DNA of 64,000 bases from a virus. Numbering within the stretch: the stretch's first letter is position 1; every line of letters begins with the position of its first letter. The notes beneath the pieces were generated by a model that was not told the DNA's origin, ran no database searches, and worked only from the letters and a program-made list of their open reading frames with translations. Position numbers and translations under genes: made by a program. Below are positions 17,542 through 30,157 of this stretch, one piece after another. The DNA is taken from IMG/VR virus record IMGVR_UViG_3300047481_001036. One strand, 5' to 3'.

Positions 17542-18564
17542 ATGAGAAAGTTAGCTAGTATACAAAAGATCAAATATGTTAAACCTATACCGGATGCTGA
17601 TAGTATAGAAACTGTCGGAATTTTAGGTTGGGAGTGCGTTAGCAATAAAGGAGAATTTCAACCAGATGATCTTTGTGTTTATTTTGAGATAGACTCCTTA
17701 CTACCAGAGATTCCAGAGTTTGAGTTTCTACGCAAAAGTTGTTGGAATGATTCTCTCAAAAAGTTTAGACTCAAAACAATAAAACTACGCAAACAACTAA
17801 GTCAGGGTTTAGCATTACCAATAAGTGTATTTCCTAAACTAGCAGAGTTGGCCGTTGGAGATGATGTTAGTGAACTATTAGGAATAGAAAAATATGAGCC
17901 ACCAATTCCGGCAGCAATAGTTGGTGATGCAAGAAGGTTCTTGTGGCCTATTAGTAAAACTGATGAGGTTAGGGTTCAGTTAGATGATGAATATAAGTTC
18001 ATTGAGACTCTCACAGGGCGACCATACTACATTAGTTTAAAACTAGATGGTACGAGCAGCACCTTTTTAATCGACCCCTCAGACGAGACTTTTCACGTTT
18101 GTGGGCGAAATTTTAGCTACCAAAACAAAAAAGAGCATAGTTTTTGGCAAATAGCTGAAAGGTACAATATTGAGCAGGGATTAAGAGACTTGTGGAATGA
18201 GGGCAGAAAAATTGCTATACAGGGAGAGGTTGTTGCTCCCGGTGTGCAAAAAAACCCACTAGGTTTACCAATAGCAGATTTGTATGTTTTTAATGTTGTA
18301 GATATTCCTACTAATACTAAATTGTGTTTGGATGATAGTTTGAGTATTGTTGAGCGATTAGGTTTAAAATTTGTGCCGGTACTTGAAAAAGGTGAAAGTT
18401 TCGGGTATACTGTAGACGATCTATTGGAACTGGCACAGGGCAAATATGTTCAACACTTCTTATCTGCTAAACCCTCTCAAGAAAGAGAAGGAATAGTAAT
18501 AAGGGACATTTTTGGAACAGTTAGTTTTAAGGCTATTAATAATCAATTTCTATTGAAGGAATAA
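17542..18564 (+). CDS. ATP-dependent RNA ligase, DRB0094/Rnl5-like
   Basis: N-terminal RKLASIQ..IPDAD.IE..VYFEIDS; KLDGTS motif I, QGE, EREGIV, FKAINNQFL. Confidence 0.9.
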   Translation: MRKLASIQKIKYVKPIPDADSIETVGILGWECVSNKGEFQPDDLCVYFEIDSLLPEIPEFEFLRKSCWNDSLKKFRLKTIKLRKQLSQGLALPISVFPKLAELAVGDDVSELLGIEKYEPPIPAAIVGDARRFLWPISKTDEVRVQLDDEYKFIETLTGRPYYISLKLDGTSSTFLIDPSDETFHVCGRNFSYQNKKEHSFWQIAERYNIEQGLRDLWNEGRKIAIQGEVVAPGVQKNPLGLPIADLYVFNVVDIPTNTKLCLDDSLSIVERLGLKFVPVLEKGESFGYTVDDLLELAQGKYVQHFLSAKPSQEREGIVIRDIFGTVSFKAINNQFLLKE

Positions 18565-19957: not shown

Positions 19958-20531
19958 ATGATATATTTCACATCTGATACTCACTTTGGTTAGCCTTCGG
20001 GCTAACTAAGGTCATAATAATATAATCAAGCATTGTAATCGTCCATTTGATAATGTTCATATAATGGATCAAGTTATACTCGACAGAATAAATGAAACTG
20101 TGGGGGCTGATGATACTCTGTATATACTGGGCGATTTTTGTTTCAGAGGCAAGAAACCTATAGAATATCGTTCACGAATAGTTTGTCAGAATATTTTCCT
20201 CATAAGAGGCAACCACGATAAACTGTCTGATTATAATGATAATCTTCAAGGTTTTATTTCGATAGAAGAAGCCAAAGAAATAATATATTGTAATCAAAGA
20301 ATATATCTACTTCACTACCCTTGTCGTTCGTGGCCCGCCTCTCATAAGGGCAGTTATCATCTGTATGCTCATTGTCATGGCAAACTAGATCATGAAGATA
20401 AAGAGTCAAAACGAAAAACTCTGGACGTTGGTGTTGACAATACTGTAAATTACAATAAGCCGTTTGGAGAGCCGTGGAGTTTCAAGGAAATACAAAAACT
20501 GTTCAATAGTAAGGATAAAAATGAACGATAA
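19958..20531 (+). CDS. metallophosphoesterase interrupted by a 22-nt coding gap (segments 19958-19990 and 20013-20531)
   Basis: MIYFTSDTHFG + HNNIIKHCNRPF... joins into the canonical N-terminus; downstream LGDF, RGNHD, LHYP, HCHG, DVGVD motifs. Confidence 0.85.
19986..20012 (+). promoter_or_regulatory. putative translational bypass (hop) element, T4 gene 60-like
   Basis: GGT(take-off)-TAG inside a 10-bp stem with cUUCGg loop, followed by a matching GGT landing codon. Confidence 0.75.
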
Positions 20532-20814
20532 AGAATTCCTTAACTGGATTATTACCAGACTAACTAATATGTTTGGAGATGATCCTAACGCTGATTTCAT
20601 CCATAGGCTCCGTAATATCGCTAATAAATCAGAAGAACTATCATTAAGAATAAAGTTAGGCGATTTATTTGACGAAACTAAGGTCGATACTTGGCTACAC
20701 AAACCCAATAAAGCATTTGATAATAAGCGACCAATAGATTTAATTCATGAAGGAAATACCGACCCCATATATAAAATGATTTATATTTGGGAAAGCGGGG
20801 AGCCGTTGCTATGA
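20521..20814 (+). CDS. Xre/MbcA/ParS antitoxin C-terminal-like domain protein
   Basis: F.....WLHKPNKAFDNKRPIDLI..G signature. Confidence 0.75.
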   Translation: MNDKEFLNWIITRLTNMFGDDPNADFIHRLRNIANKSEELSLRIKLGDLFDETKVDTWLHKPNKAFDNKRPIDLIHEGNTDPIYKMIYIWESGEPLL

Positions 20815-27457: not shown

Positions 27458-29804
27458 GTGAGAATTAAAATTTTCTATCACGACAGTTGTAAAACTTTTG
27501 AACAATTTCAAACAGATATTAATTTATGGTTGATGGAACACGAAGATATTGAGATAATTTCTGCCGATAGAATTCCTGGGTCTTATAGTATCTTATATAA
27601 AGAAATGAGTGTGGGAAATGACAGCGATGAAGTGGATTGATTTGTTTAAGTTTCTTAATGAAAGAGCCAACGATATAAAGAATCTTGGATCATTTAATTG
27701 GCAGGCTCCAGTTACTATTCACGATGCCGAGACAGGAGATGAATTTAGTTGTGATACATATTATATTAATGATATCAAAGGGAATGATCGTTTAGTTCTT
27801 ATAACGAATGTTGAAAAAGTTTTTGAGGAGAATATTTAATGGATTTGGAAATAGAAAGCCTCTTATTCAAACAAGTAGAGAAACCTAAACAATTTTTAAT
27901 GACCAAAATTATTAATGTATTTGAAAATAGATATCGTATTAATGTTTATATCGAAATTTATGAAGATAATCTAGTAAAAAAGAGAATACACAGTAGTTAT
28001 TTTTGTCATTATAAACCTGGATCATTAGTAATTATGACAGATCCAGACAAAGAAAAAAATATCAAATCTATTAGATCTTGGTGATCCGATGCTTTTGAGA
28101 AAATTCTTAAAGAGTCTGTCTTGACAACGCCGATAACTCTGGTATACTTAGAGAGTACCTACTACTAAACTACGGAGACTACTGAATTATGGCTAAGGGA
28201 CAAAAAACTTGTGACAAGTGTGGAACTATGACTGGCCCAAGAGCGTATATGTGCAAAAAGTGCAATACTCCTTTTGTTTTTAAGGCTAAGAGCAAGGAAG
28301 CAAAAAATACTAAGATTATACGCGATTTTAATTGGAGAGAACTGGTTAAGGGTGATCGTGTAAGAGTTGCTGGTGGCCCATATTTTGTTAGCCGTGGCGA
28401 GTTTATTCCTATGGGTTATAGGGGTAGATTTGTTGTTGAGTCTCTTGATGATAATGGAATTTTGGCTTTCGGTATTGACAAGCACCAAGGCTTCTGTCAT
28501 ATTTATATGGGTGGAGATATTCAAAACAAGGAAACTGGCGTTTGGAAAACGGCTCATAAACTTATGAAACTTAAACAAAAAGAATTAACGTCATGACTTT
28601 AACACAAGAACAAAAAGACCAATTTAATAAGCTAATAGATTATAGAGACGATATTACAGATAGTCTCTATCATATAGAGAGGATATTAAAAACATATTTT
28701 CCAGAAGAATTTGAAATAGCATATCAGCACTGGATTCCTCAAATAATAACAGCTTTATATGAAGATAATAGATGGTTACAAAGAGGAGAAAGAAATATGC
28801 AGCAAACCATAAATCGGCTGATTGATAAAATTCAGTCTGACCAAGATAAGGGTGTATATAAATACATATAATTGGAGACATAAATAATGTCAGAAGTTTA
28901 TGCTATCACAGATTTGCGTTCGTATGCTACTCAAATGAGAGAAGCGGCGGCAACTAGTTTGTCGGATTCGTATGATGAAAATTTGGACTCCTATATCAGT
29001 CTTCAACAAATGATAGGTTTGGTAAATAAAATTTGTTTGGGTTTTGACGATCAAAACAGACCATTACTGAATGAAGATACTAATTCAGAAATTTTTGGTC
29101 AAACAGCCGCTTGGATATATAATGTCGGCCTTGCCAAATTAGCCTCACAAGATTTAATTGAATGTGCTTGGGATAATGAGTCTAACGAAATGGTATTTTG
29201 GCCCAAACAAAAACCATCAGATATCAAAACTAAAAATGAATCAAAATCAAGCAAAAATAGAAAACCTAAAGGATGAAATACATCATCTAAAAGAATATTT
29301 ACTCTCTGATTGTTGCAGACAATGTTCGGAAATAGTCTCTAAGATTGAACAATATCAGAAAGAATTATATCAACTAGAAAATAATCATGACAAACATTAG
29401 TCAAAAACGACTTAATAAGTTAAAAAAACAAGGAAAATTAAGAGACAATTTTGAACTTTGGGTTGACAGACATAATCATAAATTTGAACTTATAAGAACT
29501 ATTACAAGTCTGCTTGGTATTATTATGAGTTCTCTTATTATGCTCAAAGTTTTTAAAATCATATAGGATTATAATTATGATAGACAGAAACCATACACAA
29601 CTATCAATGTCTGTAATATTAGTAGGAATAATAATATTCATTGTGGGCCTGATAGGTATCAATATATCAAACAATCGAATAAGTAAGAATGAAACTATCA
29701 CAGCTAATGAAGTATCAGAAGAAGATTTGATATTGATAAAAAAAGAAATTAGCCGATTGGACGAAATATCACGAACAGACTATTATAAGAATAAGGGCGA
29801 GTAA
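27458..29804 (+). other. hypothetical ORFs (27458-27640, 27609-27839, 27839-28084, 28189-28596 Zn-ribbon, 28593-28871, 28887-29276, 29236-29400, 29577-29804)
   Basis: Co-oriented ORFs with RBS. Confidence 0.75.
28121..28148 (+). promoter_or_regulatory. sigma70-type promoter with CCGATA spacer motif
   Basis: TTGACA-acgCCGATAactctgg-TATACT. Confidence 0.85.
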
Positions 29805-30148
29805 AGGTATCGATTGGATATAGAAGATTATGTAAGCAAGTAGTGGTTAATCGACCGGCCACTTTAAAAGTCGATTAAATGCTTTAACTGGCACAACTCA
29901 GTTAGCCCTTGCTGCCTAATAAAACGGGCAGTAACAGATTGCGATTGCGAACGAGGGTAGCGATCAAAAATCTGTCGTTAAATCCCTCTGCACTTATAAT
30001 ATCCAACAGATTATAAGTTAAGCAAAGTTGGTAAAATGGGAAGAATCTTGTTTGTTCTAAAATCCTATTTAACTAATGAACAAAATAAACTTGTAGAAAG
30101 CATAGTTAGAAATATCGCAAGACTCGGGTTCGACTCCCGACTCGTCCA
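29795..30148 (+). ncRNA. ssrA: tmRNA; tag reading frame 29890-29919 = GTTQLALAA*
   Basis: Acceptor stem GGGCGAG/CTCGTCC with G3:U70 Ala determinant, T-arm TCGGG-TTCGACT-CCCGA, TAACT before the resume codon, tag ending LAA. Confidence 0.93.
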
Positions 30149-30157
30149 CTATCATAT

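Follow-up and report, generated by a model that had tools for sequence, protein, structure and literature searches.

The stretch of DNA analysed here, a 64-kb window from an uncultured freshwater phage, carries a metallophosphoesterase gene (19958-20531, plus strand) that is interrupted inside its metal-binding motif by a 22-nt insert. The first part of the gene, ORF1 (19958-19990), has 11 codons that read MIYFTSDTHFG, with the Asp and the His that bind metal in motif I of metallophosphoesterases. Its last codon, a Gly codon GGT at 19988-19990, is the putative take-off codon and is followed directly by a TAG stop (19991-19993), which would occupy the A site at take-off and is invariant in all 16 aligned cassettes. 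A second GGT, the putative landing codon, lies at 20010-20012, and the 173 residues encoded in the +1 frame from this codon on begin with GHNNIIK and run to 20531. By the convention used for T4 the coding gap is 19991-20012, its 22 nt consisting of 19 untranslated nucleotides and the landing codon, and ORF2 (20013-20531) supplies the remaining metallophosphoesterase from His12 onward, 172 codons and a TAA (20529-20531). Joined across the gap, the two parts give a 183-aa enzyme with the D-x-H-x-G-H motif intact; the ORF reported by a gene caller begins at ATG 20064, has 155 aa and lacks the D-x-H metal ligands. An earlier note, made from the sequence alone, had placed the start, the stop, the second GGT and the +1 frame at these positions and had proposed that skipping 22 nt restores motif I, absent from the ORF that begins at 20064, and on each of these points its reading was accurate.

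Both Gly codons and the stop are contained in one predicted hairpin (19983-20012, plus strand), in which a 13-bp stem (arms 19983-19995 and 20000-20012) is capped by a UUCG tetraloop (19996-19999) and the landing codon lies inside the extended stem. The earlier note had described a UUCG hairpin with a stem of 10 bp; the hairpin stands, the stem is longer. The fold has a free energy of -18.5 kcal/mol (z = -5.5; none of 200 shuffles is as stable), the 14-nt core by itself (19991-20004) reaches -5.9 kcal/mol, and a 17-nt hairpin pattern occurs once in the window against an expectation of 0 from 100 shuffles. A loop variant at window position 2524 was considered as a second cassette and rejected as plain coding sequence. 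A conserved 5' stem-loop around the start codon was likewise considered, being seen in a single-sequence fold only, and is not claimed since it is absent from the consensus fold.

The anatomy observed at the gap restricts the ways in which the two parts can be joined. Across the gap, frame 0 runs into the TAG and a further TAA, and in the window, as in most alleles, a TAA immediately ahead of the landing codon shuts the landing frame, so that only a jump from GGT to GGT yields a single protein. It is conceivable that the two parts are joined not by a long hop but by programmed frameshifting or by read-through of the stop, given that two allele types (L109 and L141) have no stop in the +1 frame of the gap, where a +1 shift at take-off would add 7 residues. 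However, this is highly improbable for three reasons beyond the closed frames: first, read-through or reassignment of the TAG would meet the TAA four codons later. Second, the 7 extra residues would fall inside the metal-binding motif. Third, the gaps of the related cassettes described below are 21, 22, 26, 35, 36 and, in T4, 50 nt long and thereby represent the offsets 0, +1 and +2, and the presence of all three argues against frameshifting.

The downstream part of the gene encodes a calcineurin-like phosphoesterase (Pfam PF00149, Metallophos, 22.9 bits against a cut-off of 21.5; PHROG 547 'phosphoesterase', 1.4e-37). Its G-D and G-N-H-D motifs are in ORF2, the D-x-H of motif I is encoded in ORF1, and an intact homologue (L002) aligns with the Metallophos profile from position 3. 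No second phosphoesterase copy was found in the window.

A nucleotide search of the phage collection with the locus gave no match, and relatives were reached by protein instead. Alleles were gathered by a protein-guided scan of viral contigs together with exact-pattern scans of viral, metagenome and genome collections, which gave 24 distinct alleles: 13, which come from 12 samples or more, have the insert and have it at the identical codon, and the other 11 lack it and read ...SDTHFGH... uninterrupted. The earlier note had suggested aligning homologues to see whether the insert is absent from some and conserved or covarying in others, and both outcomes are observed, the covariation being that of the stem across gene families described below. 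An assembly or sequencing artefact could in principle produce an insert of this kind, and unitigs do break near the site, which is read here as strain diversity around a conserved core. Nevertheless, the site (19988-20011) is spanned by contigs of four runs from four studies, with no indel and with none skipping the 22 nt, which excludes the misassembly that the earlier note had wished to see checked; with the insert present in 13 distinct alleles as well, an artefact can be set aside almost entirely.

Selection was estimated for ten of the insert-bearing alleles, a diverged set with dS of about 1.3 and synonymous sites near saturation. The observed dN/dS is 0.08 for the 11 codons of ORF1, 0.15 for codons 12-29 and 0.15 for the remainder of the gene, in comparison with 0.10-0.13 for the intact alleles. 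Codons 12-29 come after the landing codon and ahead of any in-frame ATG, the first of which is at 20064, and have no start codon of their own. Given that purifying selection acts on both halves, which lie in two different frames, both are translated as protein and must be joined. It remains to be asked whether the gene is instead split or inactivated, a tolerated endonuclease scar from which an 11-mer and perhaps the 155-aa fragment from ATG 20064 are made without any joining. ORF callers do report the 155-aa ORF, homing elements can damage their targets, and bypassing may be inefficient without a nascent-peptide signal. The selection on ORF1 and on codons 12-29 is, however, as strong as in the intact alleles with synonymous sites near saturation, which rules out both a decaying pseudogene and the 155-aa fragment as the product; no in-frame start precedes ATG 20064 for codons 12-29, the fragment would be made without the D-x-H ligands, the window contains no second copy of a phosphoesterase, and none of the 13 insert-bearing alleles shows decay of the frame downstream of the insert, the sign of a simple pseudogene that the earlier note had named. 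The absence of joining is thus considered very unlikely. The coding gap is real and selected.

Within the phosphoesterase alleles the gap is nearly invariant. Changes are confined to the second loop base (T/G), the loop being UUCG or, in two alleles, UGCG, and to two stem positions that toggle between G-C and G-U. Take-off and landing codons are GGT and GGT in 11 of the 13 alleles, the exceptions being L141, with GAC, and L041, with GGA. The GAC of L141 unpairs two basal pairs of the stem, and it may be either a tolerated landing mismatch or a mark of a decaying copy; this allele (L141:375-431, minus strand) has a GTG start, and its contig stops after 132 codons. The phosphoesterase of L041 (L041:2116-3600, the same as L144, on a contig of 194 kb, or 570 kb in the metagenome record) has a protein identity of just 34%, yet its 18-nt core is identical; its gap has 26 nt, take-off is at GGT, landing at GGA, and the 3' arm has been re-tailored to pair with the gene's own upstream codons. 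The gene tree intermixes insert-bearing and intact alleles, and two alleles (L018 and L001) agree completely (100%) over 33 nt at the start and are 64% identical thereafter. The phosphoesterase gene is a recombination mosaic in which the cassette-bearing 5' segment moves between backbones, and because of the mixed tree and the mosaic, gains of the insert cannot be counted against losses. In two intact alleles (L011 and L012) the leader, some 60 nt before the gene start, resembles that of the insert-bearing L001 and L018, and these may be cases of precise gap loss ('hit and run'), as reported for Aeromonas phages.

The relatives also indicate where the insert came from. In four insert-bearing lineages (L085, L109, L041 and L141) an ORF of about 300 aa ends 5 nt before the phosphoesterase start, and it is found in none of the 11 intact alleles. 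It contains a zinc ribbon and NUMOD3 motifs and belongs to phrog_23051, with copies 43-71% identical to each other; NUMOD3 motifs are DNA-binding modules of homing endonucleases. The ORF has no Pfam HNH match, no name for it was obtained from a PDB sequence search, NCBIfam or annotated phages, and its AF2 model (pLDDT 41) is too poor to use. Directly upstream of it lies a native 5' stub of 12 codons that ends in Gly-His and then a stop and is almost identical, up to the junction, to the 5' end of the intact allele L005. The order observed in these relatives is therefore native stub, endonuclease-like ORF, element-borne RBS and exon copy, gap and the rest of the gene, the 11-codon exon before the hairpin being a second, element-borne copy wherever the endonuclease-like ORF is kept. 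In the window both this ORF and the native stub are absent, and only the exon copy and the gap remain, together with some 25 nt from the end of the ORF: the segment 19932-19957 (plus strand), common to all insert-bearing alleles, is homologous to a stretch that in L085 and L109 forms the last codons and the stop of the NUMOD3 ORF, and this relic also provides the Shine-Dalgarno region of the phosphoesterase. From this shared architecture, the insert is the surviving 3' end of a homing-endonuclease-type element, the nuclease activity itself being inferred. In the relatives the element has been inserted after codon 12, leaving the native 5' end as a dead stub of 12 codons, and in the phage of the window the endonuclease ORF and the stub have been deleted while the exon copy and the gap were kept.

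Pattern scans of the viral, metagenome and genome collections, a search that the earlier note had also suggested, found the same hairpin in genes for two other enzymes. In a GT9 glycosyltransferase gene with a strong RBS (L076:10189-11202, on an unrelated 14-kb viral contig), an identical 21-nt cassette follows codon 15, with take-off at GGT, landing at GGC and a 21-nt gap that keeps the frame; five GT9 relatives (60-68% identity) are uninterrupted at the same Phe/Tyr-Gly-Asp site, and no endonuclease ORF lies beside this cassette. Two RNase HII genes (L151:376-1007 and L031:11283-11897, the latter on the minus strand of a 388-kb contig) begin with a mini-ORF of 24 or 19 codons, respectively, that ends ...D-E-A/V-Gly-TAG in the same hairpin, and 35 or 36 nt further on the reading frame continues with R-G-P/S-L-A-G-P. 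The downstream ORFs start at position 7-8 of the Pfam profile, with the catalytic D-E encoded before the hairpin. The RNase HII gaps are A/U-rich and have a Shine-Dalgarno-like purine run, GGA or GAGAG, followed by an A/U run, and the landing triplet of L031 is AGT, which is not a Gly codon. A 295-aa ORF overlaps the mini-ORF of L031; it contains DUF7487 and matches PHROG families annotated 'homing endonuclease'. Relatives of these RNase HII genes were not found in viral contigs, which leaves neither an intact comparison nor a selection set for this family.

Covariation was scored on the 13-bp stem in 16 cassettes of four families (phosphoesterase, GT9, RNase HII and gene 60). Paired cells make up 88.8%, and compensatory changes are seen in 6 of the 13 pairs. 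No shuffle out of 500 comes up to the real alignment in the share of paired cells, in cells altered on both sides, in additional pair types or in covariation score, and two of the 500 reach six pairs; all slid controls are far below the observed values. The consensus fold of 11 alleles supports the hairpin as well, and recovery of a gene 60 homologue (L065) by the pattern scan served as a positive control.

Other matches to the pattern were examined as bypass cassettes and rejected, being terminators, read-through coding sequence or unclassified structured RNA. The exact 20-nt T4 hairpin occurs as an ordinary bidirectional terminator between convergent genes (L051:2545-2561; also L036, L057, L073 and L055), a sister contig of the L051 terminator has compensatory stem changes, and L195 uses the same hairpin sequence as an ordinary terminator. 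Nine rumen-type metagenome contigs (L158, L164, L154, L147, L149, L145, L159, L150 and L049) carry the 18-nt hairpin within a longer helix, a conserved element that resembles a structured RNA, has no Rfam family and is unlike the coding gap. Given that the same hairpin also serves as a terminator, a cassette is identified by the context of the hairpin and not by the hairpin alone.

The closest known counterpart is T4 gene 60 (NC_000866; L022, from 2855 downwards). The window has the same 14-nt core, and over the 20-nt hairpin the sole difference is the third base of the take-off codon and its partner, a compensated pair, and the earlier note had given the T4 site correctly. As in gene 60, UAG comes directly after a Gly take-off codon, the stem of a CC-UUCG-GG hairpin includes both, and the landing codon is read by the same tRNA. 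Based on these features and on the comparisons above, the gap is most likely decoded by translational bypassing, a hop which, in the absence of protein or RNA data, is inferred. Ribosomes would translate the 11 codons of ORF1 and pause once the A site has reached the TAG, with peptidyl-tRNA(Gly) still paired to GGT, and the compact UUCG hairpin (19991-20004) would fold at the paused ribosome. The tRNA would then unpair, the ribosome slide across 19 nt and the tRNA re-pair with GGT at 20010, after which decoding would restart at the His codon to give the single 183-aa enzyme. The proposal of the earlier note, a programmed hop in a gene unrelated to gene 60, gains support here from intact relatives, from selection, from covariation of the stem and from the blocking of frameshifts, with the hop remaining an inference.

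There are points that speak against a hop of this kind. Three cassettes have no landing codon for the same tRNA (GAC in L141, GGA in L041 and AGT in L031), and the identity to the T4 hairpin could represent convergence on the most stable stop-containing UUCG hairpin. The main difficulty is the nascent peptide. In T4 the KKYK signal occupies codons 14-30 of a 46-codon ORF1, the nascent peptide is described as keeping hold of the peptidyl-tRNA while the ribosome slides, and a KKYK mutant bypasses at under 10% versus 49% (PMC11194080). In the window only 11 codons precede take-off, compared with 15 in GT9 and 19-24 in RNase HII, and the earlier note was right to conclude that a T4-type nascent-peptide signal is missing. 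Given that a chain of 11 residues cannot make T4-type contacts, the efficiency, which can only be inferred, could be low or the mechanism different; alternatively, short gaps may need less help from the peptide, given that partial deletion of the T4 gap can raise bypassing efficiency and that the 10-nt gaps of phiHau3, discussed below, are bypassed in E. coli. The gap differs from that of T4 in further respects: it has 22 nt rather than 50, there is no mini-Shine-Dalgarno sequence 5-7 nt before the landing codon with an AU-rich spacer and no free purine triplet at that position in the 22-nt gap, and the landing codon itself is within the extended stem.

A different reading is that the transcript loses the 22 nt and is resealed, whether as a micro-intron or through an endonuclease and an RNA ligase, and that translation is then ordinary. 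Removal at the RNA level explains the selection on both halves and the mixed frame offsets as well as a hop does, and 1.4 kb upstream of the phosphoesterase there is an RNA ligase gene (17542-18564; PHA02142 OB fold and RNA_ligase domain). However, the sole Rfam match in the 64-kb window is a tmRNA, with no intron of group I or group II. Group I splicing requires that the exon finish in U and the intron in G, a combination that none of the four equivalent 22-nt excisions provides. An archaeal bulge-helix-bulge intron has two 3-nt bulges around a 4-bp helix and is excluded by a stem that is perfectly paired and has no bulges, and the cut sites would be staggered by 5 bp within this stem. Furthermore, excision would need neither the conserved in-frame stop after the Gly codon nor the repeated Gly codon, and the stop-in-stem geometry is that of the proven ribosomal signal of T4. 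In the absence of RNA data, excision by an unknown route cannot be excluded, but removal of the gap from the mRNA is regarded as unlikely, and bypassing by the ribosome is retained as the best explanation of the gap.

The element around the gap can be compared with that of T4 too. The MobA element consists of an endonuclease, a 'homR' copy of the target codons and, last in order at its 3' end, a bypass cassette (Manning and Atkins, bioRxiv 10.1101/2022.08.31.505936), and the present element shares with it a cassette at the 3' end of an endonuclease ORF and an element-borne copy of the upstream codons of the target. The same study describes lineages of myovirus Topo2L genes in which the endonuclease has been lost and the gap kept, and a 20-nt gap in an Aeromonas clade (Manning and Atkins, bioRxiv 10.1101/2022.08.31.505936). 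The phage of the window is a comparable lineage, with the endonuclease lost and the gap retained. Nevertheless, the target is a metallophosphoesterase (and GT9 and RNase HII) and not Topo2L, the endonuclease is of the NUMOD3/phrog_23051 type and not MobA (HNH), and the target has not been split into two functional subunits, its native 5' end being simply replaced. By analogy with MobA it is inferred that the gap breaks the DNA target of the endonuclease, in which case the element would spare its own genome and leave the protein unaltered. Of the two roles that the earlier note had offered, a mobile or a regulatory cassette, the mobile one is borne out by the endonuclease-element 3' end and by the hairpin in two other enzyme genes, and there is no support for a regulatory one. 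The evidence leans, though only slightly, towards a more general view in which a minimal module, a Gly codon, UAG in a CC-UUCG-GG hairpin and a second Gly codon, is portable and is carried by different homing endonucleases into catalytic-motif Gly codons near the 5' ends of phage phosphoesterase, RNase HII and GT9 genes, with hops of 21-36 nt after chains of 11-24 residues and without the peptide signal in the exit tunnel that is regarded as essential in T4.

Bypassing has also been proposed in another phage enzyme, the large terminase of the Streptomyces phage phiHau3, in which two 10-nt gaps follow UUA and a junction peptide was identified by mass spectrometry in E. coli for a UAA variant (PMC10732093). 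The two cases are alike in that the frame of a phage enzyme gene is broken by a short insert which relatives do not have; phiHau3 differs in its trigger, a rare tRNA-limited codon, and in its proposed regulatory role, and it has neither a T4-like hairpin nor an endonuclease element. Mitochondria of Magnusiomyces capitatus reportedly contain, from the work of Lang et al. in 2014, many short mobile inserts, called byps, that ribosomes skip between matched codons. These bypass elements, which are mentioned in PMC11194080 and in PMC10732093, are mitochondrial and eukaryotic, belong to another sequence family and have neither a stop-in-UUCG hairpin nor an endonuclease partner. As with the homing endonucleases of group I introns and inteins, a selfish nuclease would enter a conserved catalytic motif and a device would restore the host protein, but here this device is neither RNA splicing, there being no intron core and the boundaries being wrong, nor protein splicing.

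The T4 cassette has been called unique and exclusive to topoisomerase genes by the only survey in the literature searched, and within that literature T4-like cassettes are reported only in topoisomerase genes; what is new is the target, the endonuclease, the minimal gap and the missing peptide signal. To our knowledge, programmed bypassing has rested for more than 30 years on essentially one system, T4 gene 60. A natural version with 22 nt, the T4 hairpin and no peptide signal, present in more than 12 diverged alleles, offers a minimal substrate for dissecting the T4 signals and for asking which of them are truly needed for take-off, for holding of the tRNA and for landing. The missing peptide signal, the main difficulty for a hop, is thus also what makes the element useful. 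Coding gaps are furthermore supported as a third route, besides introns and inteins, by which homing endonucleases may harmlessly invade essential motifs. Since gene callers truncate such genes, as with the 155-aa ORF here, phage annotations probably miss many of them.

Two further genes of the window are recorded here. A 97-aa ORF (20521-20814) overlaps the end of the phosphoesterase gene and has a C-terminal domain of the Xre/MbcA/ParS antitoxin type. A tmRNA gene lies at 29795-30151 (Rfam 107.8 bits; tag peptide GTTQLALAA), and its presence in a phage deserves mention given that the same genome would also rely on ribosomes pausing at a stop codon.
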